Virus record (IMG/VR): IMGVR_UViG_3300046804_001743
Span: 1 to 64,000 of that record
Source: a virus
Direction: 5' to 3' (one strand)
DNA length: 64,000 bases
The notes beneath the pieces were generated by a model. It saw only the letters and a list, made by a program, of their open reading frames with translations. It was not told the DNA's origin and did not search any database. Below, piece after piece: positions 34,056 to 51,022 of this stretch. Positions within the stretch are counted from its first letter, which is position 1; every line of letters starts with the position of its first letter. The position numbers and the translations under genes are program-made.

Positions 34056-34432
34056 TGACAAACCCATTTCGTGATCAAGAAAAATTTATGCGGGCCTGTG
34101 ATCAGACCGTAGACGAACATAACGAAGCACAATACAAATTGTACCTCGACCTTATGGAAGAGGAATGGAAAGAACTCCAAGTAGCACTGGATAAAGGTGA
34201 TCGTGTAGAACAACTGGATGCACTACTTGACTTTATCGTTGTTACCACAGGTGCTATTCATTCAGCAGGATTCGATGGCGAAGGCGGCTGGAAAGAAGTT
34301 ATGAAGACAAACTTTGCCAAGGTTGATTCAGAGACTGGCAAAGTTCGTAAGCGTGAGGACGGTAAGGTTCTCAAACCCGTGGGGTGGACTCCCCCTGACC
34401 TAAAACCATTTGTTAGTAAGGAGAACAAATAA
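34055..34432 (+). CDS. mazG: MazG-like nucleotide pyrophosphohydrolase
   Basis: About 125 aa, all-alpha NTP-PPase pattern (EE..E..D with an acidic cluster). Confidence 0.65.
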   Translation: MTNPFRDQEKFMRACDQTVDEHNEAQYKLYLDLMEEEWKELQVALDKGDRVEQLDALLDFIVVTTGAIHSAGFDGEGGWKEVMKTNFAKVDSETGKVRKREDGKVLKPVGWTPPDLKPFVSKENK

Positions 34433-35130
34433 TGTTTGGACATAGTTATACTGAAGGCGGAATTATTAACTACCGCACCGCTGGCGAAGTAAATCAAGCA
34501 ATGGGCCGTGTCTACGGATATATGGGTCTTGCTACCTTAGTCAGTATGTTTGTTAGTGGATTTATAGGAACTAATCCGGAACTTGTAAAATTCTTTTTTA
34601 CAGGTATTATGCATTGGGTTGTAATCTTTGCACCGTTACTAGCGGTGTTTGGTGTTACTGTTGCCCTTAATGCGAACCCGCCAAAGGAAATTGCCCTGCT
34701 ATTACTTGCAGGTTTTGCGGCTATCATGGGCCTGAGCTTTGCTGTAATCTTTGCTGTCTATACTCTACATAGTATTGTCACAGCCTTTATGGGCGCGGCC
34801 GTACTGTTTTGCACTATGGGCTTCTACGGATACTTCACTAAGAAGAGTCTTGATAGCCTAGGAAAGTTTATGTTTGTTGGCTTGATTGCTATTGTCATTG
34901 CTAGTATTATCAATATCTTTATTGGTAGCACAGTCATGCAAATGGTGATTTCAGCACTTGCTATTGTAATCTTTATGGGCTTAACTGCGTATGATACACA
35001 GCAAATTCGTGAGATAGTTAGTACAGATTCGAGCCCTGCTGTTGAAGTGACTGGCGCCTTGACCCTGTACCTAGACTTTATCAACATTTTCCTAAGTCTG
35101 CTTCAGTTGTTTGGAGACAAGAAGGACTGA
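34432..35130 (+). CDS. Bax inhibitor-1 / YccA family membrane protein
   Basis: 232 aa with 7 predicted TM segments. C-terminal LYLDFINIFLSLLQLFG matches the BI-1/YccA family C-terminal motif. Confidence 0.6.
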   Translation: MFGHSYTEGGIINYRTAGEVNQAMGRVYGYMGLATLVSMFVSGFIGTNPELVKFFFTGIMHWVVIFAPLLAVFGVTVALNANPPKEIALLLLAGFAAIMGLSFAVIFAVYTLHSIVTAFMGAAVLFCTMGFYGYFTKKSLDSLGKFMFVGLIAIVIASIINIFIGSTVMQMVISALAIVIFMGLTAYDTQQIREIVSTDSSPAVEVTGALTLYLDFINIFLSLLQLFGDKKD

Positions 35131-35251: not shown

Positions 35252-36085
35252 ATGAGAAATAATTATTGGACTTGTTCAAAATTCGCTGATTGGGTACGTG
35301 GTACTACAAAACTTAAGATGGGTACCTCAGAGCAGTGGCACGAATGGGAATCTCGAGCAAAGAAAGATTATCCATTGCGCTGGTGGTTAGCCGAAGAAGG
35401 CCTCGACTATCTACAAAAATTTATCATGTGGCCTTTGGATAAACTATATGCTGTCAAATATTATATCAACAACAGATTTATTAGTCGCACTCATAGCCTT
35501 ACCGCTCATCCCCGGGATATTAAACCTGGCCAGTGGCAAGACGTGGGGAACCGCTTTTTGCCTTGCTTATTCAACGAGCTTGTTGATTTTGTTGAAGTGG
35601 AGTTAGCATGGTGGCACCTTGCTTGGGCAGACGCTGATGAAAAAAAGAAGTATAACGCACCGTGGTCTACAGGTTGGTTCCGTTGGAGAACATGGCGTTG
35701 CCCACAGGCTGGTCTCGACAATCTCGAATGGCAACGTAATCTACGTTGGAAAGAAGACGAGTGCGTTGAAGGTAGCCCTAATGTGGGAAAACTTACTCCG
35801 CAAGCAGAAAAGGCGCAAGAAATCTTAGACTTGTACAAGTGGTGGACTGAAACATATCGCAACCGTCCCGATCCACACGATGCTAGCGGATGGAGTGCTT
35901 ACTGCGATGCTCTTAGAAATGAGAATGGTGATCGTTGGATTGGAATCGATCCAAAAGATCCTAAACTTAAAAAGCAAGGTGACAAAGCTCACAAACTACT
36001 TCAAAAGATTGAAGCGGCCTATGAAAAAGAAGACGAAGAAATGATGATTCGTCTTATTAAAGTTCGTCATGGACTATGGACATAA
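35252..36085 (+). CDS. hypothetical Trp-rich protein
   Basis: ORF only. Confidence 0.4.
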   Translation: MRNNYWTCSKFADWVRGTTKLKMGTSEQWHEWESRAKKDYPLRWWLAEEGLDYLQKFIMWPLDKLYAVKYYINNRFISRTHSLTAHPRDIKPGQWQDVGNRFLPCLFNELVDFVEVELAWWHLAWADADEKKKYNAPWSTGWFRWRTWRCPQAGLDNLEWQRNLRWKEDECVEGSPNVGKLTPQAEKAQEILDLYKWWTETYRNRPDPHDASGWSAYCDALRNENGDRWIGIDPKDPKLKKQGDKAHKLLQKIEAAYEKEDEEMMIRLIKVRHGLWT

Positions 36086-36321
36086 GTTGGAGATTTGTTC
36101 GATCCAAAGGAAGGCGCACGTGGATTGCTGAGGTATGGAGTGATGATTCGGATCTTGCTCCTCCTCATATTGGGTTCAACGAACCTTACCCAGAAGAAGT
36201 TTATTCAGAAATTAATCAATGGTGCTTGGAAACATTTGGGTACCATGCCCGTACTGCCTATAACATTTTTGAATTTAAGAAAAAGTCAAACTTAGACTGG
36301 TTCATACTGCGCTGGCAATAA
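36076..36321 (+). CDS. hypothetical protein
   Basis: ORF only. Confidence 0.35.
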   Translation: MDISWRFVRSKGRRTWIAEVWSDDSDLAPPHIGFNEPYPEEVYSEINQWCLETFGYHARTAYNIFEFKKKSNLDWFILRWQ

Positions 36322-36341: not shown

Positions 36342-37733
36342 ATGAGCGCAGAAATTGATCGCATTAAAAAAGTAATCAAAATTACTAACGAAATTAGTCC
36401 AACATTCTGTTTGGCTAAATGGCACCATACTAGCATATACCTACATACTGGCCAAACACACAGTTGCTATCATCCAAGACCGCACGAAATTCCCTTAGAA
36501 GAAATTAAGTTTAATCCGGCGGCCTTACATAATACTCCTGAAAAGAAAAAAGAACGTGCCTTAATGCTTGTTGGTGAGAAGCCAAAAGGCTGTCAGTACT
36601 GTTGGAACGTAGAAGGACTTAGTGATACGCACATTAGCGACAGGCACGATCGAAATGCTAACATTTATAAACCAGAACGTTTAGAAGAAATCAAAAATAG
36701 TCCTTGGGACTTTAACATCAATCCAGAATACATAGAACTGGCATTTAGTAACGAGTGCAATTTTAAGTGTGGTTATTGCCATCCTATGAGCTCAAGCAGT
36801 TTCCAAAGCGAAATTAAAAAGCACGGTCCGTACAATACTGTTAAAAATCATACATTGAATATTGAGTGGTTCAATCCTTATCAAGAAGATGAAAATCCCT
36901 ACATTGATGCATGGTGGAGATGGTGGCCAGAAGTTAGTAAAACTTTAAACATTTTACGCATTACAGGTGGCGAACCCTTAATGCATAAGAGTACTTGGCG
37001 GTTGTTTGATAACTTGCGTCAGGAACCTCGTCCTTATTTAGAACTTAACCTAAACAGTAATTTAGGAACCACAACAAGACATGTAGAAAAACTTGTTGAA
37101 AATGTAAACGACTTAGTTAGCAATAATAAAGTTAGAACATTTAAACTATTTTCAAGTATGGATACTTGGAATAAACGTGCAGAATACTTGCGTACAGGAT
37201 TAGACGTAGATTTGTGGGAAAAGAATTTAGATGTATATCTAACAGGAACTAAACTTCCAATTAGCATCATGTGTACATTTAATATTTTAAGTGTTACATC
37301 ATTTATAGACTTCCTTGAAAAAGTTTTAGAATGGCGTAGGAAATATCAACCGTTACTAAACCCCGATGGTTACGGTAGACGTATTAGATTTGATACTCCT
37401 TATCTAAAAGAACCTCTACAGTACGACATGTTAATTTTACCAAAGGAAGAATTTTTACCTTACTTTGATAAAATTTTAAAATTTATTAATGACAATAGAG
37501 ACGAAACTGATCCTACAAAATTTACCGATATGGAGTATGAAAAGTTTCGTAGGGTTCGTGATTACTTTGCTACAGCAAGTTACGATGAAGCAAGAGTCAA
37601 AGAAGGTCGTAAAGATTTTTATAACTGGTTTACGGAATATGATCGTAGGCGCGGCGTGAATTTCTTAGAAACATTTCCTGAAATGGCAAATTTCTGGGAA
37701 CTATGTAAATCACAAGGTGCGCCTAATGAATGA
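36342..37733 (+). CDS. radical SAM enzyme with Cys-rich N-terminal domain
   Basis: FCLAKWHH...SCYHP...GCQYCWNVEG, then CNFKCGYC and ITGGEPLMH. Paralog of the 45980 gene. Confidence 0.8.
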   Translation: MSAEIDRIKKVIKITNEISPTFCLAKWHHTSIYLHTGQTHSCYHPRPHEIPLEEIKFNPAALHNTPEKKKERALMLVGEKPKGCQYCWNVEGLSDTHISDRHDRNANIYKPERLEEIKNSPWDFNINPEYIELAFSNECNFKCGYCHPMSSSSFQSEIKKHGPYNTVKNHTLNIEWFNPYQEDENPYIDAWWRWWPEVSKTLNILRITGGEPLMHKSTWRLFDNLRQEPRPYLELNLNSNLGTTTRHVEKLVENVNDLVSNNKVRTFKLFSSMDTWNKRAEYLRTGLDVDLWEKNLDVYLTGTKLPISIMCTFNILSVTSFIDFLEKVLEWRRKYQPLLNPDGYGRRIRFDTPYLKEPLQYDMLILPKEEFLPYFDKILKFINDNRDETDPTKFTDMEYEKFRRVRDYFATASYDEARVKEGRKDFYNWFTEYDRRRGVNFLETFPEMANFWELCKSQGAPNE

Positions 37734-38460
37734 ATTAAGTGATATCTTTTCAACTAATATATTCGAAAGCTGTGAAGATTTTAAACTAGGCCAGCCATTA
37801 CCAATGGCTGTTATCGATGATTTCCTTCCTGTAACCGTTGCATTAAATCTGTATAAGGAAAGCAATAGCATACCTGACTCGTATTGGACTAAATTTACAC
37901 GCAACGGCAGTCATATGAAAGAGTGTAAAAATCTTTCAGTCGCTCCTAATGCGTTCAACCTAGTAGCATACTTACATAGTTCATACGCTCTTAGACATTT
38001 AGAAAAGATAACAGGCATAGAAAAGTTAATCCCAGACCCACATTTAGTAGGTGCAGGTTATAGCAAAAGCAGTAACGGTGACACACTAAAGATCCACAAC
38101 GATTTTAACTGGAATGAAGAACTACAGTTACACCGTGCATTATCTTTAATCATTTATATCTCTCCAGAGTGGAAAACAGAATGGGGTGGTGCTCTTGATT
38201 TTTATGATAACAAACGAGAACAAGTGATACGATCTGTTGACTGCATTTTTAATCGTTGTCTCATTTGGCAGTACAACAAATACGGGTTTCATGGCTATGA
38301 AAAACCAATAGCATGTCCTGAAGATCAATACAGGGCAACATTTAGATTATTTTACTATACTAGTAATTCTACTCATAACCCCGAGGATCCACCGCATAGG
38401 AGTCAATATTGGTTTGATCCTACTACAGGTAGTCCATACGATATACGAGAACAAAAATGA
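37726..38460 (+). CDS. 2OG-Fe(II) oxygenase
   Basis: KIHNDF (HxD), WGGALDFYD, FHGYEKP. Paralog of the 41060 gene. Confidence 0.6.
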   Translation: MNELSDIFSTNIFESCEDFKLGQPLPMAVIDDFLPVTVALNLYKESNSIPDSYWTKFTRNGSHMKECKNLSVAPNAFNLVAYLHSSYALRHLEKITGIEKLIPDPHLVGAGYSKSSNGDTLKIHNDFNWNEELQLHRALSLIIYISPEWKTEWGGALDFYDNKREQVIRSVDCIFNRCLIWQYNKYGFHGYEKPIACPEDQYRATFRLFYYTSNSTHNPEDPPHRSQYWFDPTTGSPYDIREQK

Positions 38461-39713
38461 TTTATGTAAGTACAGAAGCAGACCATCCGTTCTTTGTAGA
38501 ATTTAAAAATATAAAGGATGCTAAACTAGAACCAGAATCAGTTTACTGGCACGATCAACATGATCATCATATGAGGAATGTGTCGTTTGAAGACTTTTTA
38601 GACGAAATACATTGGGATCATATACGCAGAGATCCTACTGCCAAAATTTTATTGCATTATAGTGATGAGTATTTTAATATATTTGATTTAGAAATATATG
38701 TAAACACTATAAAGAAAAAACAAATTAATCCAGCACAAGTCTTTTTTATTGTAATCGATGAAACATGGAAGACTTGGGTTATTGATGAGTTTAGAAAGAG
38801 AGGAGTAGTTGGTATAAATGTTACTGATTATAACTTGCTTTTAAAAAAATCTGTTAGCGTAAAAAAATTAGATCTCATTGATGTAGTTGCCAACGGAGAT
38901 AGTATTAAGGGTTATTTTAAAAATCTATTATCAATTCCATTTATTCCAAAACCTGCGCCTGCAATAGAAAAAAAGTTTAGCGCATTTAGTAGAAGGTTTG
39001 ACGAGTGGCGCCTGCAGTTGTTCACTGAACTTTACCTCAAGGGTTTATTAGATCAATTTAAGTATACATTCAATAATATTGATCCGTATGCTGGAGGTGT
39101 TGGATATAATAAAATAAGAACATACGAACACGATGAAATTTTTAAACTACTGGCAAGCAAAAACTATAATATAGGTAAATTAAAAAATTGGGTAGATAAT
39201 ATGCCCTATACTTTTCCAAAGATTGATGTAACACACAAGTGGAATTTAAGATCTAACGAGTGGATCGAAAACACTGCCTTTCATTTGTTAGTAGAATCAC
39301 ATTTCAATCCGTTTAATCATTTTGAAGAATACAAAGACAAGTATGGTCCAAGAGAATTTGCACCATCTCTTATAACAGAAAAAACATGGAAAGTTATTAC
39401 ATCAGCTAGACCGTTCATTGTTTTTTCAACACCATATTTTTTAGACGACATGAGAGCATTGGGTTATAAAACGTTCCATCCTTTTATTGATGAATCGTAC
39501 GATAAAATTGAAGACCAGTACGAACGACTACACGCAATAGTAAACGAAATTGAAAGATTGAACAACCTACCAAAAGATGAGTTTGACTATTCATTTAAAG
39601 AATGTTATAATATAGCGTTACATAATCAGAAAGTATGTGAAAAGTTAACCAAAAGGTTAGTGTATAAAGATGAATTTGCCTGGGTTAACCAGTATTTGCA
39701 AAAAGGAAAATAA
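38457..39713 (+). CDS. hypothetical protein, paralog of 41839 (possible glycosyltransferase-like)
   Basis: Shared C-terminal block LGYKTFHPFIDESYD... with the 41839 protein. Confidence 0.45.
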   Translation: MIYVSTEADHPFFVEFKNIKDAKLEPESVYWHDQHDHHMRNVSFEDFLDEIHWDHIRRDPTAKILLHYSDEYFNIFDLEIYVNTIKKKQINPAQVFFIVIDETWKTWVIDEFRKRGVVGINVTDYNLLLKKSVSVKKLDLIDVVANGDSIKGYFKNLLSIPFIPKPAPAIEKKFSAFSRRFDEWRLQLFTELYLKGLLDQFKYTFNNIDPYAGGVGYNKIRTYEHDEIFKLLASKNYNIGKLKNWVDNMPYTFPKIDVTHKWNLRSNEWIENTAFHLLVESHFNPFNHFEEYKDKYGPREFAPSLITEKTWKVITSARPFIVFSTPYFLDDMRALGYKTFHPFIDESYDKIEDQYERLHAIVNEIERLNNLPKDEFDYSFKECYNIALHNQKVCEKLTKRLVYKDEFAWVNQYLQKGK

Positions 39714-40742
39714 ATGTCTAAAACAATTTTAGTAACGGGTGGAGCAGGATTTATTGCACATCACCTTATCGATAAACTACTAGCAGAAACTGACTATCGT
39801 ATTGTTACCCTAGATCGATTAGACTACAGCGGTAATCTTAATCGCCTTAATGAAGTAGTAATGGCACATCCTGTACAAGAAAGAAAACGTGTTCGTGTTA
39901 TTCATCACGATCTTAAAGCAGAGTTAAACTCGCAGATTCGTAGTCACATTGGTAAGGTAGATATGATTGCTCACCTAGCCGCTGGTAGTCATGTCGATCG
40001 TAGTATCAAGTATCCTATGGAATTCGTACAAGACAATGTTGTCGGAACTGTAAACTTAATGGACTATGCTCGCAACCTAGACAATTTAGAATTGTTTGCT
40101 TACTTTAGTACAGACGAAGTGTTTGGTCCGGCACCGGATGGCATTAGTTACAAAGAAAACGATCGATACAATTCAACTAATCCTTATAGTGCTAGTAAGG
40201 CGGCCGCAGAGGAAATGGTTGTAGCATACGAAAACACTTACGGGTTGCCTGCAATCATTACACATACTATGAACGTGTTTGGTGAGAGACAGCACCCCGA
40301 AAAGTATATCCCAATGTGTATTAAACGTGTGCGTGACAATCAAAAAATTACAGTACACAGTAATCCAGAAAAGACCAAAGCGGGATCTCGCCATTACATT
40401 CATGCTCGAGATGTTGCTGATGCTCTCATGTTCTTATACAATTACGATCTAAGTAAACTGCCCACAACATATGGCGGTGCTAAATGTCAAAAGTTTAATA
40501 TTGTCGGTGCTGAAGAATTTGATAACTTAGAGTTGGCACAGTTTATTGCGGACACACAAGGAAGACCACTTAACTATGAAATGGTTGATTTCCACAGTTC
40601 AAGACCAGGCCACGACTTGCGTTATGCGTTAGATGGTAGTAAAATGAAAGACATGGGGTGGACCCCGCAGCCGGTAAAGAAAAGACTTGCAGAAGTTATT
40701 AACTGGACTTTGGCTAACGATCGTTGGTTGGGAATTGAATGA
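39714..40742 (+). CDS. NAD-dependent NDP-sugar epimerase/dehydratase (dTDP-glucose 4,6-dehydratase-like)
   Basis: ILVTGGAGFIAHHL Rossmann motif and YSASKAAAE (YxxxK). Confidence 0.85.
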   Translation: MSKTILVTGGAGFIAHHLIDKLLAETDYRIVTLDRLDYSGNLNRLNEVVMAHPVQERKRVRVIHHDLKAELNSQIRSHIGKVDMIAHLAAGSHVDRSIKYPMEFVQDNVVGTVNLMDYARNLDNLELFAYFSTDEVFGPAPDGISYKENDRYNSTNPYSASKAAAEEMVVAYENTYGLPAIITHTMNVFGERQHPEKYIPMCIKRVRDNQKITVHSNPEKTKAGSRHYIHARDVADALMFLYNYDLSKLPTTYGGAKCQKFNIVGAEEFDNLELAQFIADTQGRPLNYEMVDFHSSRPGHDLRYALDGSKMKDMGWTPQPVKKRLAEVINWTLANDRWLGIE

Positions 40743-41059
40743 AACACGTAAGATTTGAAAACACAGGACGCCGAGGTTGGTTTGTTGGCGGTTTTCCCGA
40801 AGCCGCATTTCAAACTGACCTTGCGGAAGTATGTTATTGTACTGAGCCAGCTGGCACTGGTATTAGTCATTACCATACTGTTTGCACTGAAACTGTTTTT
40901 ATAGTTTCTGGAAGAGTAACATGTCAAGGTAAAGAATATACTAGCGGAGACATCCTTGTATTTGAACCCGGAGACATTAATGATTGTGTCTACGAAGAAG
41001 AAACTGTTATGATCGGAGTCAAAACTCCAGCAGGTAAGGATGATAAGGTATTGGTATAA
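40739..41059 (+). CDS. small cupin-like protein
   Basis: 106 aa. Beta-rich. Sits between sugar-modifying genes. Confidence 0.35.
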   Translation: MKHVRFENTGRRGWFVGGFPEAAFQTDLAEVCYCTEPAGTGISHYHTVCTETVFIVSGRVTCQGKEYTSGDILVFEPGDINDCVYEEETVMIGVKTPAGKDDKVLV

Positions 41060-41842
41060 ATGATTGTTAACTTAGACAAGATCAAGGATGCGTTTAGCAC
41101 ATTTCATAGTGCTGAACCTTTCCCCTATTGTGTAATTGATAATTTCTTTACAGACGAAATTGCAGAACAATTAGCGTTAGAATTCCCTAACTCTGATTCA
41201 GATGTTTTTAATGGAAACTATTTTAATCAGATTGAAATTAAAAAGACATGCAATATCTGGGACCGATTCCCTGCTACTACATACAATGTCCTAACATATT
41301 TAAATAGTACAGAGTTTTTAGACATATTAAAACCATTAGTTAAACAAGATATCTTGTATGCAGACCACGGACTTCACGGTGGTGGGTGGCATATACATCC
41401 ACCTGGCGGCAAGCTAAATGTACATTTAGATTATAGCATTCATCCTAAGATGAAAAAGCAAAGAAACTATAACTTACTAGTTTATCTAAATCCTAACTGG
41501 CAAGAAGGATGGGGCGGAGAACTAGGACTATGGTCAGATAAAAATAACAAGCCCAGTGAGTTAGTTAAGGTCCTTGAACCTAAGTTCAATAGAGGAGTTA
41601 TCTTTGACACAACCGCTAATAGTTGGCATGGTCTCGAAGTGCCTAATAGTTTTCCAGAAGGACAAGACCGTAAAAGTATTGCACTATACTATCTTACAGA
41701 ACCCCCAACGAATGTTAATACTAGAGGTAGAGCCCTTTTCTCCCCAAGTAAAGAACAAGAAAACGACCCTGAAGTACTAGAATTGATCAAAAGAAGATCT
41801 CAAGTATCCGCAGGAGATGTATCAACATGGAGTCGTTCATGA
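41060..41842 (+). CDS. 2OG-Fe(II) oxygenase
   Basis: NVHLDY (HxD), WGGELGLWSD, WHGLEVP. Confidence 0.6.
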   Translation: MIVNLDKIKDAFSTFHSAEPFPYCVIDNFFTDEIAEQLALEFPNSDSDVFNGNYFNQIEIKKTCNIWDRFPATTYNVLTYLNSTEFLDILKPLVKQDILYADHGLHGGGWHIHPPGGKLNVHLDYSIHPKMKKQRNYNLLVYLNPNWQEGWGGELGLWSDKNNKPSELVKVLEPKFNRGVIFDTTANSWHGLEVPNSFPEGQDRKSIALYYLTEPPTNVNTRGRALFSPSKEQENDPEVLELIKRRSQVSAGDVSTWSRS

Positions 41843-43182
41843 ACTTTGTATTTGAAAATTTAGAAACACTTGAAAATTTTGTAGAATGCCCTGATAAAAA
41901 TCCATCAGGTGTGAGAAGATTTACACCTAGTCCGTTAGTTATTACCATGGTAAGGTATCACCAGACTAACGAAAAATTTAAAAATATGGATTTTAAAAAC
42001 ATAGCTATCAGCAATGATCCTAGAAAATTTGAAAGATATGGAATAGCATCCGGAGTAACACATGCACCTCACGATTGGTGCGGACCCGATACACAAGGAA
42101 ATGGATTTGATAAGAATTTTGCAGATCGAAAATCTTTATTTGAATTTCTCAGTCCTGTTTATCTAACAGACCTTAGAACAGGTAAAGCAACTTTACTATT
42201 AGATCAGAGTCACGAAGGCTATCACGCTGATTGGTTATTTGATTGGTTTCATAATAGCTGTGAATTTTACAAAATTAATCCTACACAAATTATTTACATA
42301 ACAGGCGATATGGATGTGTATAGAAAATATTCGCTGTGGTGTGACGAAAAGAATTTAACAGATAGAATGTGTGTTGTACCATATGCACACTTTGAAAATG
42401 CTGTTTTTACAAATGATAACAATAGGACGACAATCTTTAACCTAGGCCGTAATCCAAACTTCAACGACCAGTACAAGTATAAAAAGAAAAACTTGAACAA
42501 AATTAAAACATTTAATGCTTTACAGAAACGCCCTAGAGCACATAGAATGTGGCTGTTTAAAGAACTGTGCCTAAATAATCTTTTAGAAAATAGTATTAGT
42601 AGTATGAATTGGTTTAAGTGGAGCCATACATTCTACATGAATAAAACTATGAACATAGAGGACTACGAAAATATTATAGGGTTAACTCCAATGCTTCCAC
42701 CTAATGCTACAGGAAAATACAAAGAAGAGTTAGATGTGTTTGCGAGCGGTGACAGTGGAAAGTATCAAATGGAATTTAATTCACAAATAACATTAGATAC
42801 ATGGTTTAGTGTAATCAGCGAAGCGTCGTTTGGTGAAGACACTTGCTTCATTAGTGAAAAAACTTTTAAACTAATCTGTGTTCATCATCCATTTATTATT
42901 TTTGGAAATAAGAATTCGTTACACTATTTGCGAGAACTAGGATACAAAACATTCCACCCATATATCGACGAATCATATGATACATTAGAGTGTTGGGAAA
43001 GATTAGATGCAATTATCAATAGCATTAAAAAAATAAATGCTATACCACAAGAAGAAAAGCTAGACTGGTTTTTAGGCATGAAGGACATTTTAGAGCATAA
43101 CTATAAAGTTATGAAGCGCAACTCTTTAGACAATGCTCCGCAATCTATGATAACAATTAAAGAATATTTTCAGGAAAAATAA
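41839..43182 (+). CDS. hypothetical protein, paralog of 38457 (possible glycosyltransferase-like)
   Basis: C-terminal LGYKTFHPYIDESYD... ATGA overlap. Confidence 0.45.
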   Translation: MNFVFENLETLENFVECPDKNPSGVRRFTPSPLVITMVRYHQTNEKFKNMDFKNIAISNDPRKFERYGIASGVTHAPHDWCGPDTQGNGFDKNFADRKSLFEFLSPVYLTDLRTGKATLLLDQSHEGYHADWLFDWFHNSCEFYKINPTQIIYITGDMDVYRKYSLWCDEKNLTDRMCVVPYAHFENAVFTNDNNRTTIFNLGRNPNFNDQYKYKKKNLNKIKTFNALQKRPRAHRMWLFKELCLNNLLENSISSMNWFKWSHTFYMNKTMNIEDYENIIGLTPMLPPNATGKYKEELDVFASGDSGKYQMEFNSQITLDTWFSVISEASFGEDTCFISEKTFKLICVHHPFIIFGNKNSLHYLRELGYKTFHPYIDESYDTLECWERLDAIINSIKKINAIPQEEKLDWFLGMKDILEHNYKVMKRNSLDNAPQSMITIKEYFQEK

Positions 43183-44202
43183 ATGTATAGAAAACAAATA
43201 GCTGAAATTAACGAAAGCATCAAGACAACTAAGAAGGCTATTATATCCCTTGGCTGTTCTTTTGTTCAAGGACAAGGGGCAGTTAATCCAGAATTATACG
43301 AAGAATACAAATGGAACTATGACGGACTTGGTGTTCCTCTTTATCTCAAACTTCCCGAAAAAGAAGAAAAAGAATTACTAAAGAAGTATCCATTAGTTAC
43401 TAAACAAGGCGACGAGCTGTTTTTTAGATTCATGGAATACGAAAATGCTTTTGTCAATGTATTGTGTAAAAAATACTTCAATGGAGAATATACTCCTATT
43501 AACTTAGGTCTAGCAGGATGCGGAAACAGAGGAACAATTAAAGAACTGTATTTCTATCCAGAGGTTAACTGGAACCAGCTTGAAGAAATTATAGTTATTT
43601 ACTGCCCAAGTGGTCCGGAACGATTTGACTTTATCAACGACCAGTGGATAGATCACGGTCATTGGTTATGCATGTGGCCGCATTATAAAGATAAAGAAGA
43701 CGGCCCTCGCAAGAATTTATGGAAGGGATACAGCGATTGCGTCTACTCTGAAAAGTTTGAGGTGCTAGAACAAATTGCACATATACAAGAATTGATGTTA
43801 TGGTGCAAGTATCATAATGCAAAACTAATAATCACTCCGGGCTTTGATAGAAGATACGAAAAAGACTACTTTAAAGCTTCTCTTAAAAAAGTTATAAATC
43901 GTTCTTCAGAAGGAACTGTATTAAAGCATGGAACTATTTTTCCATTAGACTTTGGACAGAAAGAAAATATTAATAAAATAATGGAATTGTGGCCCTGGGA
44001 TAGTATGTTTAAACCAGATGGCTACGAAACGTTTGCTGATTTATGTGTAGCACAAGAAAAGGTTAAAGACGATCATTTCTTTAACTACTTAGGAGCAGGG
44101 TCTCCTAATGGATGGATAACCGCATGTGCTCATCCTACTGCAAAAGGCCATGACTTATTTGCTAAAATATTACATAACCATATTACTAAAAACAAAAAAT
44201 GA
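43183..44202 (+). CDS. SGNH-like protein, variant GCS motif
   Basis: ISLGCSFVQGQG near the N-terminus and a C-terminal AHPTAKGHD block. Confidence 0.45.
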   Translation: MYRKQIAEINESIKTTKKAIISLGCSFVQGQGAVNPELYEEYKWNYDGLGVPLYLKLPEKEEKELLKKYPLVTKQGDELFFRFMEYENAFVNVLCKKYFNGEYTPINLGLAGCGNRGTIKELYFYPEVNWNQLEEIIVIYCPSGPERFDFINDQWIDHGHWLCMWPHYKDKEDGPRKNLWKGYSDCVYSEKFEVLEQIAHIQELMLWCKYHNAKLIITPGFDRRYEKDYFKASLKKVINRSSEGTVLKHGTIFPLDFGQKENINKIMELWPWDSMFKPDGYETFADLCVAQEKVKDDHFFNYLGAGSPNGWITACAHPTAKGHDLFAKILHNHITKNKK

Positions 44203-45101
44203 GAATCACACGAGTAAAAGAAACTGTAGGAACAATCACAGCAGACGATCCTGAAATGATCGAATCGTTTCGATTACGCAGTCCTGTTGTTGCAAAAAAT
44301 CCAATCGACTTAAAGTATTATTCTAATTATTACAACGGTAATACTGATCAAGGATCAATGCCGAGTCCAGGAGTTCATAAATTTCTAAACGGTAACGAGC
44401 GGGCACAGGCTAACCCAGACTATAAAGATTTTAGTTATTTCATAAACGATATAGGTTTTAGAGACCAATATCCTCCAAAAGAAACACAAGGGATATTTGG
44501 TTTCTTTGGATGCAGTATGACATTAGGCGAGGGTTTAGATACGGTTGATAATTTTCCGCATCGCGTATCTAAGCATTTTAACAAACAACATTTAAATCTT
44601 GGTTTGCCTGGTATCGGTGCATACAGGATTGCATTAATTTTTGCGGCGGCGGCAAATGTTTGGAATATAGAAACCGCGGTAGTTACCTTTCCTAACTGGG
44701 CAAGATTCCACTATGTTGACACTAAAAACAACATGAAACTGATTCATTTGCCTTATAGCATAGATAACAAGGAATGCGAAATTGTTAGAAATGACATCTT
44801 AAATGATTTTTCTGACCAGTATATGTTATCAGCTACCAAGGATGCAATAAATTATATTCTTATGGTTGCAAAATTAAAAAATATTAATTTAGTTTTATCT
44901 GCTTGGGACCCTGATGTTAGTAGAATTATAGAAGCAATCACAGGATATGATGTTCCTAAATACAACCTATGGAATCCTTTTAAGGAAAGGATACCTGGAG
45001 ATTTTGCCAGAGACTATATACACCCAGGAGTCAACATTGTTGATACCTATGTAGAAAAACTTAAAGACACAATCAATAGAAAACACTATGTCAGACTCTA
45101 A
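44199..45101 (+). CDS. SGNH-like protein, variant GCS motif
   Basis: FGFFGCSMTLGEG and DYIHPG (block V). Confidence 0.45.
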   Translation: MRITRVKETVGTITADDPEMIESFRLRSPVVAKNPIDLKYYSNYYNGNTDQGSMPSPGVHKFLNGNERAQANPDYKDFSYFINDIGFRDQYPPKETQGIFGFFGCSMTLGEGLDTVDNFPHRVSKHFNKQHLNLGLPGIGAYRIALIFAAAANVWNIETAVVTFPNWARFHYVDTKNNMKLIHLPYSIDNKECEIVRNDILNDFSDQYMLSATKDAINYILMVAKLKNINLVLSAWDPDVSRIIEAITGYDVPKYNLWNPFKERIPGDFARDYIHPGVNIVDTYVEKLKDTINRKHYVRL

Positions 45102-45987
45102 ACAATTAACCATTGTTATAGTAACTTACCACGGAGACTTTCCATTACTGGAAAGATGCCTAACTTCCTTTGAAAAATATATAAATCTAGATCAAGTTAA
45201 GGCTATTAAAATTATCCTTAACGATCTTCCTATATACACAAACGCATTGCAGAGTATTATAAACAAGTATACTAATTTAAAACTTGAATTAGTTTCGTCT
45301 GCAACATTAGAACCGGTTATTACAGAATATTTTAATTGGAATACACAACAACTTTTTAAGCTTCTAGCCTGTAATGTAGTTGATACTGAGTGGTACTTAA
45401 TACACGACTGCAAAGATTATTATGTCAAGCACGTAGACTTCTTTAAAGACTGTTTTACAGATGACGGCAGAGCTATCACAAAATTAGATCACACACAGTA
45501 TAGTGATTATAACAGACACGGGGGAGGATTTTTGCCCTTCAACCTGGCTTATGAAATTGCCTGTAATGTCTGGGGTATTAGCAGACAAGATACTGCCATC
45601 TGGCATTTGCCCACTGTAACACCGTTCTTTGTTAAAACAGATACAATGAAAGGTATGGTGCGTGAATTAAAATCTATGATAAGAGGGTTCTTTCCTTACC
45701 TATTTAATCTTGCTATAAATGAGCAACGTGTAGCAACTGAATTTTTACTTTATAGTGCATACTGTTTTAGTAAGAACCAATTAGCTGACTATGCTGACTG
45801 GAGTATTAATACTGCCTATTATAGTAAATTAAAACAATCAAAGGATCTAAGAATTTACTTCCCACCTAATCCACAAGAAAATGAAAAATATTTTCATAAC
45901 GGACAGATTTGGCAATTTAATGAAGGTACTTGGAAGCCTGCTGTTGCTACACATGTTTCTTATACAGAGGAAAAGTTAGATGAGTAA
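45088..45987 (+). CDS. hypothetical protein (possible GT-A glycosyltransferase)
   Basis: N-terminal LTIVIVTYHGDF resembles GT2 N-termini. Weak. Confidence 0.35.
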   Translation: MSDSKQLTIVIVTYHGDFPLLERCLTSFEKYINLDQVKAIKIILNDLPIYTNALQSIINKYTNLKLELVSSATLEPVITEYFNWNTQQLFKLLACNVVDTEWYLIHDCKDYYVKHVDFFKDCFTDDGRAITKLDHTQYSDYNRHGGGFLPFNLAYEIACNVWGISRQDTAIWHLPTVTPFFVKTDTMKGMVRELKSMIRGFFPYLFNLAINEQRVATEFLLYSAYCFSKNQLADYADWSINTAYYSKLKQSKDLRIYFPPNPQENEKYFHNGQIWQFNEGTWKPAVATHVSYTEEKLDE

Positions 45988-47491
45988 CTACAACCAAGCG
46001 GCAGACATCGCAGAACATCAACTAAAATTTATTAGCAAATCAATGTGCTATGCTAAGTGGGCACAAGTGTCTATGCACCTTACTAATGGCATGACACAGA
46101 GTTGTTACCATCCGCCGCTACATAAAATAGATACTGCACTATTAAAAGAAAATCCCAGCGCATTGCATAACACCGATCAAAAAAAGCAAGAGCGTAAAAT
46201 GATGTTAAAGGGCGACCGCCCAGCAGGGTGCGAGTATTGTTGGAAAATTGAAGATGTAGGCGGAAGAAGTGATAGAATTTATCGTTCAGGAGAATACTGG
46301 GCACAAAATGCTAGACTAGATATATTTGAAGCCATAGATACTGGCAACGTAGATCCGCGATATGTTGAGGTTAACTTTAATCAAGCCTGTAATTTTAAAT
46401 GTATGTATTGCAGTCCGCACCTGTCAACTGCATGGGAAGATGAAGTAGAAAAATTTGGACCTTACGAAGTACTAAACTCGTCTGGACAATTAACAGAACA
46501 CAACAACATCAATGCACTAAAGAGCAGTGGTTTCATGCCTCTAAAAGTTAGGCAAGATGAGAACCCATACGTAGAAGCATTCTGGCGTTGGTGGCCTCAG
46601 TTGTATAAAAAATTAGAAGTATTGCGTATGACAGGCGGAGAGCCGCTTATGGATGTCAACACATTTAAGGTGCTAGACTATATCTATCAGCACCCAAATC
46701 AATGGTTAGAAGTAAGTGTAACTACTAATATGTGCCCGCCTAAGCCGGAACTGTTTAACAAGTTTATTGATAGTCTAAAAAAATTAGAAGAAATACAAAT
46801 ATGGGAAGATAAAGAACGATTCAATCCTGGATCCGGTAATCACTGGTACGTAAACATGGCTGTTAAAAATTTTGCTGTGTTTGTTAGTTTAGATAGCGTA
46901 AGTGATCAAGCTGAGTATATTCGATCGGGTTTAGATTACACAACCTTACAAAAAAATGTAACACATTTATTAGACGACACTTGCAATACTACGCTGACCT
47001 TTATCAATACATTTAATGCTTTAAGTGTTCCTAAGTTCAAGGATTTTTTAAAATACATACTAGAGCTTCGCACAAAGTATAATCGTCAAGCTCAGGGTAT
47101 CAAATATATCCCAATTCACGATCCATACCATACACATCCAGATCACCAAGTACATCCAAGACAACGTGTATGGTTTGACGTACCTTTGTTAAGGAATCCT
47201 GCTTGGCAAAATATACATATATTGCCTGAAGAGTTTGAACAGTATTTAGATGATGCTATTAAGTTTATGGAAGATAATTTCGAAATGGGGAACTTTGATG
47301 GCTTTTACGATTTTGAAATTGAAAAAGTAAAAAGAAATTTAAAAATTATGAAGGAAAGAAATCCTAATCAAACTATTAACAGAAAAAATTTCGTAAATTA
47401 CTTCCAAGAGTATGATCGTAGAAAGAACACTAATCTAGTAAAAACCTTCCCAGAATTAGAAAATGTTTATAACGATTGGAGAAAAATATGA
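45980..47491 (+). CDS. radical SAM enzyme with Cys-rich N-terminal domain
   Basis: CYAKWAQ...SCYHPP...GCEYCWKIED, then CNFKCMYC and MTGGEPLMD. Confidence 0.8.
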   Translation: MSNYNQAADIAEHQLKFISKSMCYAKWAQVSMHLTNGMTQSCYHPPLHKIDTALLKENPSALHNTDQKKQERKMMLKGDRPAGCEYCWKIEDVGGRSDRIYRSGEYWAQNARLDIFEAIDTGNVDPRYVEVNFNQACNFKCMYCSPHLSTAWEDEVEKFGPYEVLNSSGQLTEHNNINALKSSGFMPLKVRQDENPYVEAFWRWWPQLYKKLEVLRMTGGEPLMDVNTFKVLDYIYQHPNQWLEVSVTTNMCPPKPELFNKFIDSLKKLEEIQIWEDKERFNPGSGNHWYVNMAVKNFAVFVSLDSVSDQAEYIRSGLDYTTLQKNVTHLLDDTCNTTLTFINTFNALSVPKFKDFLKYILELRTKYNRQAQGIKYIPIHDPYHTHPDHQVHPRQRVWFDVPLLRNPAWQNIHILPEEFEQYLDDAIKFMEDNFEMGNFDGFYDFEIEKVKRNLKIMKERNPNQTINRKNFVNYFQEYDRRKNTNLVKTFPELENVYNDWRKI

Positions 47492-48243
47492 GAAAGATTG
47501 TTTTAGTTACAGGAGGATTTGACCCCTTACACTCCGGACATATTTCTTACTTCAAAGAAGCGCGAGCACTAGGTGACATGTTGATTGTCGGTATCAACAG
47601 TGATGCTTGGCTTGAGCGTAAAAAGGGCAGAGCATTCATGCCCTGGAAAGAACGCTACATGATTGTGAGTAAGATCAAGTATGTTGATCAAGCTACATAT
47701 TTCAATGACGAAGACGGTAGTGCTGTGGCGTTTATTGAAGACATGAAACAACAATATCCCAATGACGAAATCATCTTTGCCAACGGTGGTGATAGAACCG
47801 CTACAAACATTCCAGAGATGGTATGTAAGGATGTGGTCTTTAAATTCGGAGTCGGCGGTGAAGATAAATCTAACAGTAGTAGCTGGATTCTTGACGAATG
47901 GAAGGCTCCTAAAACAGAAAGACCGTGGGGTTACTATCGAATTATTCACGAAGTTCCAGGAACCAAAGTTAAAGAACTTACTATTGACCCTGGACAAAAG
48001 CTCAGTTTGCAAAAGCACTTTAAAAGAAATGAATTTTGGTTTGTAACACACGGTGCTTGTGACGTTGTTAGCTGTTTGAGTAACGGCTACATGATGCCTG
48101 TAGTGCTACTCAAAGAACACCTACACCATTTTGTACCAAAAGGTGAATGGCACCAAATTCGAAATCCGTACCAAATTCCTTGTAAAATTGTAGAAATCCA
48201 ATTTGGCGAGCTGTGTGACGAGTCAGATATTGAGCGTAGATAA
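47488..48243 (+). CDS. sugar-phosphate cytidylyl/adenylyl-transferase fused to a C-terminal cupin
   Basis: VLVTGGFDPLHSGH (HxGH nucleotidyltransferase motif, as in TagD or RfaE domain II). C-terminal beta-rich cupin-like half. Confidence 0.7.
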   Translation: MRKIVLVTGGFDPLHSGHISYFKEARALGDMLIVGINSDAWLERKKGRAFMPWKERYMIVSKIKYVDQATYFNDEDGSAVAFIEDMKQQYPNDEIIFANGGDRTATNIPEMVCKDVVFKFGVGGEDKSNSSSWILDEWKAPKTERPWGYYRIIHEVPGTKVKELTIDPGQKLSLQKHFKRNEFWFVTHGACDVVSCLSNGYMMPVVLLKEHLHHFVPKGEWHQIRNPYQIPCKIVEIQFGELCDESDIERR

Positions 48244-48246: not shown

Positions 48247-48275
48247 TTGACAGCACTATATTTTGGTGCTACAAT
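48247..48275 (+). promoter_or_regulatory. sigma70-consensus promoter (TTGACA-17nt-TACAAT)
   Basis: TTGACA at 48247-52, TACAAT at 48270-75. AGGAG RBS at 48294-98 before the ATG at 48308. Confidence 0.6.
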
Positions 48276-48307
48276 ATACATATTGTTAAACATTAGGAGT
48301 GATTCAC

Positions 48308-49513
48308 ATGGCAACAAAAGCCGCTACTAAAACTCGTGTAACCAAAAAGCAAGTTATTGCTCACCGTACTCGCGCTGTTAAAGATACCAGCCCTGTTTGG
48401 GAAGGTTGCGAGACTTGGAGCGGTGATGAGTTCCATCGCTTCTTCCGCAAAGCAATGGACTACTACCGCCTTGAAAGCGATATTAAAACTTACAAGCCTG
48501 TAGTTATCCGATGGATGGAAAGTGTTGGCTGTACTAAGTCAGACATTGCCGCTTTTAAGAAAGTTAAAGACAGTCGTGTTGGAACTACAATGGGTGCAGT
48601 TGCGGCCTGTTTGAATCGTGGTATGCAACCACAACGGGCTGACTTTAATCAAGGTCGCGATACTGCGGCGTGGCTTCGTGCTGAGATTGTTAAAGTCATT
48701 AACGAAGGCAAAGACGACGTTGATCCAGAAGTAGCAGCCGCGGAAAAAGAAGCAGAAAAGTCAACTGTTTATACTCCTAGTATCCAAGAACGTGTGCGTG
48801 ATGCGGCTATGAACATGACTGAAGAATTGGAAGATGCATACCACGCTTTCCAAACTGATCCAGAAAACTTTGATCCCAAAGCATTTAAGATTGTAAACTT
48901 GCTTCGTGGCAAGGGCGTAAAAGCCGCACATGCTCGTATTATTAAAGAGTTTTATGCCCGTGACTTGGCGGAACTAACTGAGCTTGCTAGCGGTAAAGCT
49001 GACGAGCAGTTGCGTGAAGGTTATAGTCATCGTAGCCGTAAACAAATTAAAAACTTCATTGCGTTCTTGCAAGAGATCGAAAGTGCTTGTAAAATGCTTA
49101 TGGAAGAGGCAAAAGTTAACAAGAAGCCTCGTGCTAAAAAGGCTGTACCTGCTGAAAAGATTGTTGGTAAACTCAAGTATCTTAAGACGTTTGAAGCTCT
49201 TAAACTTGTGTCTATTAACCCTGCAGACATCCTTCGTGCTAAGGAACTGTGGGTTTACAATACTAAAACCCGTAAGTTGGGCAAATATGTGACTACAGAG
49301 TTCAGTGAGTTGGGTGTAAAAGGCACTACAATTACAGGCTTTGATGAGCATAACAGTATTTGTAAGACTATCCGTAAGCCTGAAGAAAAGCTCAAAGAGT
49401 TTAAAGCGGCAGGTAAAGTGGCGTTGCGTAAGTTCTTGGACGATATCAACGCTACAGACACCAAAATGAACGGTCGTATTAACGAAGATACTATCCTGCT
49501 TAAAGTGCAGTAA
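48308..49513 (+). CDS. hypothetical Lys-rich protein (possible virion or scaffold protein)
   Basis: Strong promoter and RBS. About 400 aa, helical and charged. Confidence 0.5.
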   Translation: MATKAATKTRVTKKQVIAHRTRAVKDTSPVWEGCETWSGDEFHRFFRKAMDYYRLESDIKTYKPVVIRWMESVGCTKSDIAAFKKVKDSRVGTTMGAVAACLNRGMQPQRADFNQGRDTAAWLRAEIVKVINEGKDDVDPEVAAAEKEAEKSTVYTPSIQERVRDAAMNMTEELEDAYHAFQTDPENFDPKAFKIVNLLRGKGVKAAHARIIKEFYARDLAELTELASGKADEQLREGYSHRSRKQIKNFIAFLQEIESACKMLMEEAKVNKKPRAKKAVPAEKIVGKLKYLKTFEALKLVSINPADILRAKELWVYNTKTRKLGKYVTTEFSELGVKGTTITGFDEHNSICKTIRKPEEKLKEFKAAGKVALRKFLDDINATDTKMNGRINEDTILLKVQ

Positions 49514-49558
49514 GTATAAACAAAACATGGATAAATACTCAAAAGAGAGTGTTTATCC

Positions 49559-51022
49559 ATGGACTCATTACAAAATAGCATTAATCAATTAATACAATCA
49601 GCATTAGAAAATTCTGCTGGCAATTTTAAGCACACTGGCGACTTATTAATTAACGGAACTCTTACTGTTGATACTGTAAATGTTAATAATTTAATTACAG
49701 AACATGGTAATTTAGCCAATCCCGGAAACTGGGTAACTATAACAGAAGACGAGTTAAGCGGCAAAGGATTTAGTTGGACATGGGGTGACGGCGGTACAAA
49801 GTTATTGTACAGAGACGGCAATAGACTTTGGACCAGCGGAGACTTTGATCTAGGATCTAACAAGTCTTACAAAATTAATAATGTACCTGTGTTGTCTGCA
49901 AGCGAGCTTGGCCCGCAGGTCACAAAAAGTAAACTTAGAGAGCTAGGAACATTAAACAGTTTAACAGTTTCTGGCGATGCAACTATTTCTGATTTTGCAG
50001 TTTTTAACAGCACAGTAAATCGATTAGGTCTAGGAACAGATCAGCCCAATGCAATCCTAAGTATTTTAGACAACGGGATTGAAATTGTAACGGGTGCGGC
50101 AGGTAACAATCTAGCCTGCTTTGGTACGTTTACTAATGATAGTTTAGAAATTATTACTGATAATACAACTCGCGTTACATTCAAGAATGATGGCGAAGTT
50201 ATTTTTGGCAATGAATCTACTAAGACTGCTAACGTAACTGTCTACGGAACCCTCAAAGTAGAAAATTTATTAACTGATAATAGATTAGATCGATACAGTT
50301 CTTTAGAGTTTAAAGCATCAACTGGTAGAACAGAGTATGGTTTAGGATTAACTTGGACCGGTACAGGCAACAGTAAAAACTTCCTACTAATGCCTGATCC
50401 AAGTAGATTGTGGTCTAGCGAAAGTTTAGAACTTGCAGAAGAAAAATCTTTTTACATTAATGGTTCTGAAGTATTGAGTAAAAATGCTCTTGGCACTAAT
50501 GTCACTAAATCTAATCTAGCTACATTAGGCACTTTAGAATCGTTAAGCGTACAAGGCGAAGCTACGTTCTTTGGAGATGTTAATGCATCTCACAACCTAT
50601 TAAGAGCAAAAAATATTGTACTTGATGCGTACAGTAATAGGCTATCAATTACCAACTTAGGTGTTGATTCTAGTGAATCGTTCAGTATTAAAATTGACAA
50701 CGACGAAGCACTACACGCAGATAAACATTCTATAAGTATTGGTAATAAAAACAATAATAGAAAACCAGTTAAGGTATTTGGTCCATTAAGTATCGGCGCA
50801 AGCAATCCCGATCCAGATGCTATGCTCAGTGTTAACGGAGACGTTATACTAGGCGGCAAGAAATTTACCAGCGGTACATCAGCACCAGTGACAGGAAACG
50901 GCACTCAGGGAGATATATGCTGGAATTCAAATCCTCAACCTAATAGTTACGTTGGCTGGATCTGTATTTCAAGCGGTGCTCCTGGTGCATGGATGCCGTT
51001 TGGAATGATTGTAAACCGTTAA
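49559..51022 (+). CDS. fibre-like structural protein with internal repeats
   Basis: Repeated segments (SASELGPQVTKSKLRELGTLNSLTVSGDATI and SKNALGTNVTKSNLATLGTLESLSVQGEATF). Gly/Thr/Asn-rich. Confidence 0.5.
   Translation: MDSLQNSINQLIQSALENSAGNFKHTGDLLINGTLTVDTVNVNNLITEHGNLANPGNWVTITEDELSGKGFSWTWGDGGTKLLYRDGNRLWTSGDFDLGSNKSYKINNVPVLSASELGPQVTKSKLRELGTLNSLTVSGDATISDFAVFNSTVNRLGLGTDQPNAILSILDNGIEIVTGAAGNNLACFGTFTNDSLEIITDNTTRVTFKNDGEVIFGNESTKTANVTVYGTLKVENLLTDNRLDRYSSLEFKASTGRTEYGLGLTWTGTGNSKNFLLMPDPSRLWSSESLELAEEKSFYINGSEVLSKNALGTNVTKSNLATLGTLESLSVQGEATFFGDVNASHNLLRAKNIVLDAYSNRLSITNLGVDSSESFSIKIDNDEALHADKHSISIGNKNNNRKPVKVFGPLSIGASNPDPDAMLSVNGDVILGGKKFTSGTSAPVTGNGTQGDICWNSNPQPNSYVGWICISSGAPGAWMPFGMIVNR

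Follow-up and report, generated by a model that had tools for sequence, protein, structure and literature searches.

A modular phage operon combining radical SAM enzymes, predicted GT-B glycosyltransferases of an un-modelled superfamily and SGNH-like enzymes, with a possible role in virion glycosylation

In pelagimyophages, glycosyltransferases, rfaE and radical S-adenosylmethionine (SAM) cassettes are located in a hypervariable host-recognition region (PMC7029224), and clusters of lipopolysaccharide (LPS)-related genes are present in large cyanomyophages (PMC12801897). Remodelling of the host O-antigen or cell wall is the published, annotation-level reading of such clusters (PMC7029224; PMC12801897). 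Here, a 12-gene cassette (positions 36342-48243) was analysed in the first 64,000 nucleotides (i.e. the window) of the IMG/VR virus record IMGVR_UViG_3300046804_001743. This element is of an already known kind, namely a glycan or 'LPS-like' cluster that a phage carries close to its fibre genes; its core, its un-modelled GT-B glycosyltransferase superfamily, the coupling of oxygenases to glycosyltransferases and the role of N-twitch radical SAM enzymes are not described in the searchable literature. The cassette is proposed to be a modular glycan-building operon that most likely glycosylates a phage structural protein, a reading to which a probability of about 0.55 is assigned. Marine myophages have long been known to carry 'LPS-like' clusters, and a conserved core makes the function of these clusters testable.

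The cassette resembles the pelagimyophage and cyanomyophage clusters in its occurrence in a large aquatic myophage-type genome, its proximity to tail-fibre genes and a content that varies between close relatives. Shared enzyme types include short-chain dehydrogenases/reductases (SDRs) acting on nucleoside diphosphate (NDP)-sugars, an rfaE/TagD-like nucleotidyltransferase, glycosyltransferases, 2-oxoglutarate (2OG) oxygenases and radical SAM cassettes. In contrast, the published descriptions list glycosyltransferases that are classifiable in CAZy (i.e. GT2, 8, 10, 11 and 25) and contain no core of N-twitch radical SAM, GT-B and SGNH enzymes, fixed gene order, 2OG-glycosyltransferase coupling or fusions. 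Giant viruses have gene clusters for fibril and capsid glycans. Glycosylation of mycobacteriophage capsid and tail-tube proteins is described in the passage of PMC12619734 that cites Freeman et al. 2023. Like these viruses and phages, the present phage has its own sugar-nucleotide enzymes and glycosyltransferases beside structural genes, with a lineage-variable content; known phage virion glycosylation differs in involving one or two ordinary glycosyltransferases and no radical SAM, 2OG or SGNH enzymes, and the acceptor of the present cassette is putative. Coupling or fusion of a 2OG oxygenase to a glycosyltransferase, with glycosylation of the new hydroxyl, is a feature of the bifunctional hydroxylase-glycosyltransferases LH3/PLOD3 (collagen) and L230 (Mimivirus) and of the Skp1 prolyl-hydroxylase/Gnt1 pathway. 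These systems have GT-A partners, whereas the partners in the cassette are of the GT-B type and the more conserved of them (i.e. X2) usually occurs without an oxygenase.

Three genes form the obligatory core of the module across related phages. These encode a radical SAM protein with an N-terminal four-Cys twitch-like domain (rSAM_A, 36342-37733, 463 aa; NF033640, N_Twi_rSAM), a glycosyltransferase of predicted GT-B fold that lacks a Pfam model (X2, 41839-43182, 447 aa from ATG 41839) and a modelled SGNH/GDSL-fold esterase or acyltransferase (S339, 43183-44202, 339 aa). An IMG/VR scan with an X2 alignment produced at least 525 matching stretches, and layouts were counted for the best 79 loci. 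An rSAM_A-type gene was present upstream of X2 in 74 of these loci (94%) and S339 immediately downstream in 71 (90%), with a gene order that was constant across all 79. Interchangeable add-ons are found around this core, namely an SDR (54/79), a second N-twitch radical SAM protein (rSAM_B; 36/79), an oxygenase (2OG_B; 19/79), a nucleotidyltransferase-cupin fusion (7/79) and a second oxygenase with a second X protein (2OG_A and X1; 15/79), the last two occurring strictly together (15/15 loci having either). A carbamoyltransferase and an Anp1-like glycosyltransferase are added in locus L002, and Methyltransf_24 in L007. Marine loci L009 and L010, which stem from abundant phage contigs (Tara Oceans, JGI), carry four X paralogs, two SDRs, a PhyH oxygenase, a DUF5672 protein and a 640-aa B12-binding radical SAM protein, and adjoin a GH108 endolysin; the enzyme types match those of the window but the oxygenase and radical SAM families are non-orthologous. 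Such variable tailoring content is as expected for a glycan-diversifying locus, and the module is widespread and modular in a clade of uncultivated large aquatic tailed phages. The cluster is reduced to a three-enzyme core (N-twitch radical SAM, GT-B and SGNH esterase) plus plug-in pairs and is small enough to reconstitute. The hopanoid side-chain pathway has the order HpnH (radical SAM), HpnI (glycosyltransferase), HpnK (deacetylase) and HpnJ (a second radical SAM enzyme, which acts on the sugar once attached). The enzyme-type order rSAM_A-X2-S339-rSAM_B is alike, an analogy of order only; the hopanoid acceptor is a lipid, whereas nothing lipid-related was found in the cassette.

Searches of 50,697 phage records produced no match to the whole cassette with megablast or to X2 with tblastn. 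A single full-length isolate match was obtained for rSAM_A, in the Ralstonia jumbo phage RsoM2USA, where every gene carries a hypothetical annotation and the homolog has neither an X nor a 2OG or SDR gene in its vicinity.

In the window, the cassette is one tightly packed operon. The 12 genes lie where the initial annotation had placed them, all on the + strand of 36342-48243, in a gap-free arrangement with overlaps of 4-14 nt, and have a G+C content of 0.34-0.39 as compared to ~0.41-0.42 in the flanks. The stop of each oxygenase gene overlaps the start of an X gene (2OG_A with X1 and 2OG_B with X2). Promoter- and terminator-like sites in the region were not enriched over shuffled sequences and give no more than a weak indication of boundaries; of the promoter-like matches close to the cassette ends, the best (48247-48275) falls in the 55-bp gap after the last gene.

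The X proteins are predicted to be glycosyltransferases. A structure model of X2 adopts a GT-B fold with two Rossmann-like domains in GT-B topology, so that the initial reading is not refuted by the lack of a glycosyltransferase fold in the X proteins. X1 (38457-39713, 418 aa), a GT-B-like protein of an optional subfamily, has its own, smaller ortholog set and matches the X2-family hidden Markov model (HMM) with an E-value of 4e-94. On the strength of the model, both would belong to a very large GT-B superfamily without a library model. A metagenome protein collection contained 1,377 homologs of X2, none with a Pfam domain, and an exhaustive hmmsearch of 1.84 billion representatives detected 11,747 X clusters (50% identity) at E<=1e-3, 8,413 of them at E<=1e-10. 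No Pfam glycosyltransferase matches were obtained for 57 diverse members of the superfamily, and the X-family profile had no match to PDB sequences at E<=10. Models of the family are lacking in Pfam, NCBIfam and PHROG, and its members are mostly viral; in BFVD, the closest structures belong to 22 tailed-phage proteins, all of them uncharacterised and from uncultured phages. X may be regarded, if the modelled fold is correct, as a very large and mostly viral glycosyltransferase superfamily without a characterised member. Assignment to the CAZy GT10 fucosyltransferases was rejected, as neither X1 nor X2 has any Pfam match at E<=0.01 and no Glyco_transf_10 match was obtained for the 57 diverse members; identities to the GT10 members FUT9 and H. 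pylori FucT and to other families of GT-B fold are only 7-13%. A conserved acidic/basic motif of the C-terminal domain, E-x11-(S/T)EK, recalls the (Y/I)TEK donor-binding motif of GT10.

Natural fusions link the X domain to other enzymes. Protein P0420 (713 aa) is a 2OG-X fusion in which an N-terminal domain with 45% identity to 2OG_B precedes an X2-type domain, P0155 consists of an X1-type domain fused to an SDR, and in one BFVD entry an X-like domain is fused to a UDP-glucose/GDP-mannose dehydrogenase. The fusions to sugar-nucleotide enzymes provide indirect support for glycosyl transfer from a nucleotide sugar. Elsewhere, the pairing of such a prolyl-hydroxylase-like oxygenase with a glycosyltransferase is familiar from the biology of collagen, Skp1 and Mimivirus.

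The look-alike genes of the cassette were examined for their relationships, as the initial annotation had proposed a three-gene unit (radical SAM, 2OG oxygenase and X protein) that was duplicated and diverged inside the phage. Paralogy was borne out for all three pairs. rSAM_A and rSAM_B (45980-47491, 503 aa) are 36% identical over 486 columns (E 2e-97), i.e. over their full length rather than the N-termini only; 2OG_A (37717-38460, 244-247 aa, with a probable start at ATG 37726) and 2OG_B (41060-41842, 260 aa) are 28% identical (E 8e-27); and X1 and X2 are 28% identical over 363 columns (E 2e-21). The block LGYKTFHP[FY]IDESYD is common to X1 and X2 (ALGYKTFHPFIDESYD / ELGYKTFHPYIDESYD) and is a signature motif of the entire X superfamily. 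The proposed duplication, in contrast, did not stand. Separate orthologs of both copies were found in relatives for all three pairs, with distinct rSAM_A and rSAM_B orthologs each 60-78% identical to their window counterparts (rSAM_B in L002, L004 and L006, 60-70%). In a rough neighbour-joining tree of the superfamily, X1 and X2 are not sister clades; each falls in a deep branch of its own, and other subfamilies intervene. The layout rSAM_A-2OG_A-X1-SDR-(2OG_B)-X2-S339-S300like was observed in L006 and L008; L002, L004 and L005 lack 2OG_A and X1 yet retain both radical SAM genes, which are directly adjacent in L002. A recent tandem duplication of a three-gene cassette was rejected since the copies are not each other's closest relatives and are not confined to this lineage, and the separate orthologs, the deep X1/X2 split and a fixed backbone (rSAM_A...X2-S339...rSAM_B) with optional inserts all argue against a duplicated three-gene unit. 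The look-alike genes are instead ancient paralogs common to hundreds of related phages, and the 'mirror' layout reflects old paralogs at both ends of this backbone. A fourth paralog pair, S339 and S300, was considered; this pairing is unproven, with an hhalign probability of 3% limited to a shared block I.

An activated-sugar module with a keto intermediate had been predicted, and the enzymes found are of this kind. The SDR (39714-40742, 342 aa) matches PF16363 (E 1e-50) and PF01370, has dTDP-glucose 4,6-dehydratases as all of its best PDB matches (E 5e-51) and contains the GxxGxxG, TDE and YxxxK motifs. These features point to an RmlB-like NDP-hexose 4,6-dehydratase forming a 4-keto-6-deoxy intermediate; a score of 247 bits, short of the TIGR01181 equivalog cutoff (365.1), does not define its nucleotide specificity. 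The adjacent small metal-binding cupin (40739-41059, 106 aa) has an HxH...E motif and matches to phrog_24762 (E 4e-19) and, below the gathering score, PF07883 (Cupin_2; E 1.5e-4); this protein possibly acts on the 4-keto sugar. The last gene (47476-48243, 251-255 aa, with a probable start at ATG 47488) encodes an HxGH-type nucleotidyltransferase with the motif GGFDPLHSGH (PF01467, 53 bits; gathering 21), fused to a cupin of the phosphomannose isomerase type (PF01050, 85.4 bits), which forms the C-terminus of type II mannose-6-P isomerases. Scores for this nucleotidyltransferase do not reach the equivalog cutoffs for rfaE domain II (70.7 versus 181.5) or TagD (48.6 versus 165.4). The previous labels for the flanking genes were right in kind. 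Reading frames and catalytic motifs of the flanking genes are intact, with orthologs that are 55-89% identical, and none of these genes, including those for the dehydratase and the nucleotidyltransferase, appears to be a pseudogene.

Two genes had been labelled as SGNH-like. For S339 this label is supported by a model that has the alpha/beta/alpha fold of SGNH enzymes and their Ser, Gly, Asn and His blocks, and that most closely resembles the structures of carbohydrate esterases and of a tail-fibre deacetylase from a phage; the S339 profile had no match among PDB sequences. For S300 (44199-45101, 300 aa) the resemblance is at motif level only. The family alignment contains GDS/GCS-x-x-G, NxG and DxxHPG blocks, with a canonical GDS in some orthologs, and profile matches to SGNH esterases in PDB were marginal (E 0.1-0.7). 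The following gene (45088-45987), which had been labelled as GT-like, encodes a 299-aa DUF6492 protein (PF20102, 46.1 bits versus a gathering score of 22.9) without a match among PDB sequences, whose glycosyltransferase-like character is putative. Elsewhere in the window, a 214-aa paralog of S300 (12317-12961; HMM E 7e-14) overlaps the start of an N_Twi_rSAM gene (12951-14210), and S300-family open reading frames (ORFs) lie beside N_Twi_rSAM genes in the Bdellovibrionales loci L040, L054, L055 and L061, which suggests a recurrent partnership of SGNH-like and N-twitch radical SAM proteins.

In the proposed pathway, the sugar-nucleotide enzymes would activate a hexose and convert it to a 4-keto-6-deoxy intermediate, and the GT-B enzymes would transfer sugars to a soluble cytoplasmic acceptor. 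Each 2OG oxygenase, probably coupled in translation to a GT-B enzyme and fused to one in some relatives, may install a hydroxyl that is used by the glycosyltransferase or in a later step. The SGNH enzymes would add or remove O-acyl groups, and the radical SAM enzymes may perform C-H chemistry; these and the 2OG oxygenases may act on the sugar, as the initial annotation had supposed, or on the acceptor. The acceptor would most likely be a phage structural protein (e.g. a fibre or surface protein), resulting in virion-glycosylation genes whose content varies between phages in the manner of an O-antigen locus.

None of the 12 cassette proteins contains a hydrophobic segment above KD19 = 1.67, and no lipid-carrier, flippase, polymerase or exporter Pfam families were detected among the cassette genes scanned. 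The lack of membrane segments and of lipid-carrier and export families indicates that the chemistry is cytoplasmic. An O-antigen or capsule biosynthesis locus was rejected on the same grounds, as the required lipid-carrier, export and polymerase/ligase families are absent from the cassette Pfam matches. A related explanation is that the O-antigen, capsule or another surface glycan of the host is altered during infection, blocking superinfection or changing recognition, through action on cytoplasmic, lipid-linked or nucleotide-linked host intermediates. This is how the comparable pelagimyophage clusters are read in print (PMC7029224), with large cyanomyophages carrying such clusters too (PMC12801897), although the published assignment is itself an annotation-level inference. 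Consistent with a link to these phages, genes of cyanomyophages S-SSM7 and P-TIM68 share 50% identity with the N-terminal nucleotidyltransferase domain, and relatives of the SDR (69%) and 2OG_B (46%) are present in a Kyanoviridae single-virus genome; in addition, one bacterial rSAM_A homolog lies beside a glycosyltransferase and an ABC-2 exporter. The cassette, however, encodes no initiating phosphoglycosyl transferase, flippase, polymerase, ligase or membrane protein, and both prolyl-hydroxylase-like oxygenases and a 2OG-glycosyltransferase fusion are foreign to known O-antigen pathways. Alteration of the host envelope is considered unlikely, and a virion protein remains the leading guess for the acceptor, ahead of a host glycan or DNA.

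The nature of the oxygenases bears on this choice. Both are prolyl-hydroxylase-like Fe(II)/2OG enzymes with PF13640 scores of 47.7 bits (2OG_A) and 64.6 bits (2OG_B) against a gathering score of 27, and the iron- and 2OG-binding residues (HND/HLD...H...R) are present in both. The best PDB sequence matches of 2OG_B are OGFOD1 (E 6e-7) and then the PHD and P4H prolyl hydroxylases, while its best NCBIfam match, far below cutoff, is the cyclophane-peptide oxygenase YhhC. A third PF13640 oxygenase is encoded at 2448-3047 (-) of the window, and an ORF at 1957-2493 (-) has a weak match to aspartyl/asparaginyl beta-hydroxylases (E 0.009, below the gathering score). Base J and phages combining TET enzymes with glycosyltransferases are models for DNA hypermodification, in which an oxygenase would hydroxylate a base and the GT-B enzymes would build a glycan on the phage DNA as a defence against restriction. 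A hydroxylase beside or fused to a glycosyltransferase follows the logic of such systems, all cassette proteins are soluble, and a nearby QueD-like gene hints at base modification elsewhere in the genome. The PF13640 type of the oxygenases, whose best solved relatives are protein hydroxylases and not TET/JBP enzymes, speaks against this explanation, as does the occurrence of X2 without any oxygenase in most loci; moreover, the genes scanned in the window revealed neither a hydroxymethylase nor a TET/JBP or DNA-binding domain. DNA is accordingly an improbable acceptor.

Both radical SAM proteins score far above the NF033640 cutoff of 170 bits (rSAM_A, 309.5; rSAM_B, 308.3) and contain the CxxxCxxC and GGEP motifs, with invariant cysteines at C23, C42, C84 and C87 and at C139, C143 and C146. 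Profile matches in PDB were limited to the generic core of MoaA, SkfB, BlsE, viperin and BtrN and do not allow a functional assignment. Two chromosomal rSAM_A homologs (39-40% identity) lie beside carbohydrate-type genes, one next to a GT1-family glycosyltransferase and an ABC-2 exporter pair and the other near a carbamoyltransferase. These enzymes could alternatively, together with the 2OG oxygenases, mature a ribosomal peptide or metabolite that is then glycosylated and acylated. Auxiliary-cluster domains of the SPASM/twitch type are typical of peptide maturases, to which secondary NCBIfam matches were obtained, although twitch-domain radical SAM enzymes also act on sugars (BtrN and BlsE being among the PDB matches). 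The YhhC match of 2OG_B, weak as it is, the 12 radical SAM genes of the window and a bacterial rSAM_A homolog adjoining an M16 peptidase and a radical SAM/SPASM gene point in the same direction. No precursor gene was recognised adjacent to the cassette, and the gap-free operon leaves no room for one; an 81-aa ORF directly upstream (36076-36321) has no family match and occurs in 3/79 loci, no systematic search for small ORFs having been made. The sugar-nucleotide enzymes and the X fusions to such enzymes also place carbohydrate chemistry at the centre, making a peptide or small-molecule product very improbable.

Glycosylation of a virion protein is favoured by the prolyl-hydroxylase-like oxygenases, the 2OG-glycosyltransferase fusion and the neighbouring tail-fibre-like and Ig-like genes. 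The cassette is followed, here and in 8/79 loci, by p404 (phrog_11903) and then the tail-fibre-like p487 (48299-51022), and in L004 and L005 it follows giant proteins with Ig-like domains. Several observations weigh against this reading. A search for acceptors in the 64-kb window detected no collagen-like or Pro-rich ORF, and the tail-fibre-like protein contains 11 N-x-S/T sequons as compared to 9.4±2.5 expected from composition; genome coverage is 64 kb only. About 60 of the 79 loci lack 2OG_B and X2 mostly occurs without any 2OG gene, indicating that hydroxylation is no prerequisite for X2. PF13640 oxygenases are not restricted to protein substrates, and the marine loci have PhyH-type oxygenases and B12-type radical SAM enzymes, both characteristic of small-molecule chemistry and thereby a point for action on the sugar. 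Scores of the SDR, nucleotidyltransferase and cupins are all below equivalog cutoffs and define neither nucleotide nor sugar specificity. NF033640 has no assigned function, so that membership explains no mechanism, and the N_Twi_rSAM arrays of Bdellovibrionota lack glycosyltransferases. If the acceptor is a virion protein, virion glycosylation would extend from actinophages to abundant aquatic phages, with the addition of radical chemistry. A more specific version, in which the 2OG/GT-B pairs and the N-twitch radical SAM/SGNH core perform a hydroxylation- and radical-dependent O-glycosylation of virion proteins through glycosyltransferases of a so far unrecognised superfamily (more than 8,000 sequence clusters), is tentative and rather unlikely; if true, it would be the first such bacteriophage system and a first functional handle on N_Twi_rSAM proteins, including the Bdellovibrionota tandem arrays.

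The distribution of N_Twi_rSAM was assessed in a one-genome-per-species scan, which produced 67 loci that are overwhelmingly from Bdellovibrionota metagenome-assembled genomes, including megabase-size chromosomal contigs. Tandem arrays of 5-7 paralogs were observed at many loci of this phylum (e.g. L019, L022, L034, L046 and L014), with the L019 array being flanked by dihydroorotate dehydrogenase, glutamate dehydrogenase, GGDEF and PhoH genes. For an orphan radical SAM family that is heavily amplified here (5 of 12 radical SAM genes) as well as in predatory Bdellovibrionota, the cassette provides an entry point for study. Nothing specific was found in the literature on N-twitch radical SAM proteins in phages or Bdellovibrio, on DUF6492 or on the combination of radical SAM, P4H and glycosyltransferase genes in jumbo phages; radical SAM enzymes are not a subject of the 'moraphage' paper (PMC12619734), in which nothing connecting it to the present phage clade was found.

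Further radical SAM genes are clustered at a distance from the cassette. The 12 radical SAM genes of the window start at 4522, 5711, 7231(-), 12951, 14203, 15084, 16159(-), 17130(-), 19100(-), 20065(-), 36342 and 45980, and five of them (4522, 12951, 17130, 36342 and 45980) are N_Twi_rSAM members. The counterpart of the block at 16159-21030 (-) is located directly 3' of rSAM_B in L004 and L006, so that the block is relocated and inverted here; in tblastn searches, the genes 3' of rSAM_B in these two loci matched window positions 16183-21021 (-) with 40-65% identity. The glycan cassette and the radical SAM island are probably one super-cluster that was split and inverted in this phage.

Other genes of the window were noted alongside the cassette. 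Homologs of p404 occur in the jumbo phage PA5oct and in T4-like phages of Caulobacter, Sinorhizobium and Stenotrophomonas. The QueD-like gene (51489-52040) encodes a 6-pyruvoyl-tetrahydropterin synthase relative (phrog_2389, E 1.5e-33); a sigma-70-like promoter match, perfect at 12/12, lies upstream of it at 51386-51413. A 107-aa ORF (54909-55232) is 38.5% identical to an Fe-S_biosyn (IscA-like) protein of L002, and its product might support the many Fe-S enzymes. Two adjacent ORFs at 8153-9221 (-), of 211 and 155 aa, have weak matches to the N-terminal Rossmann part of SDR/epimerase proteins only and could represent a disrupted or highly divergent SDR gene. Between the radical SAM island and the cassette, the region 30974-35130 encodes ClpP (PF00574), an ATP-dependent DNA ligase (PF01068 with an OB domain) and a membrane protein of the Bax1-I/BI-1 family (PF01027, E 8e-53).

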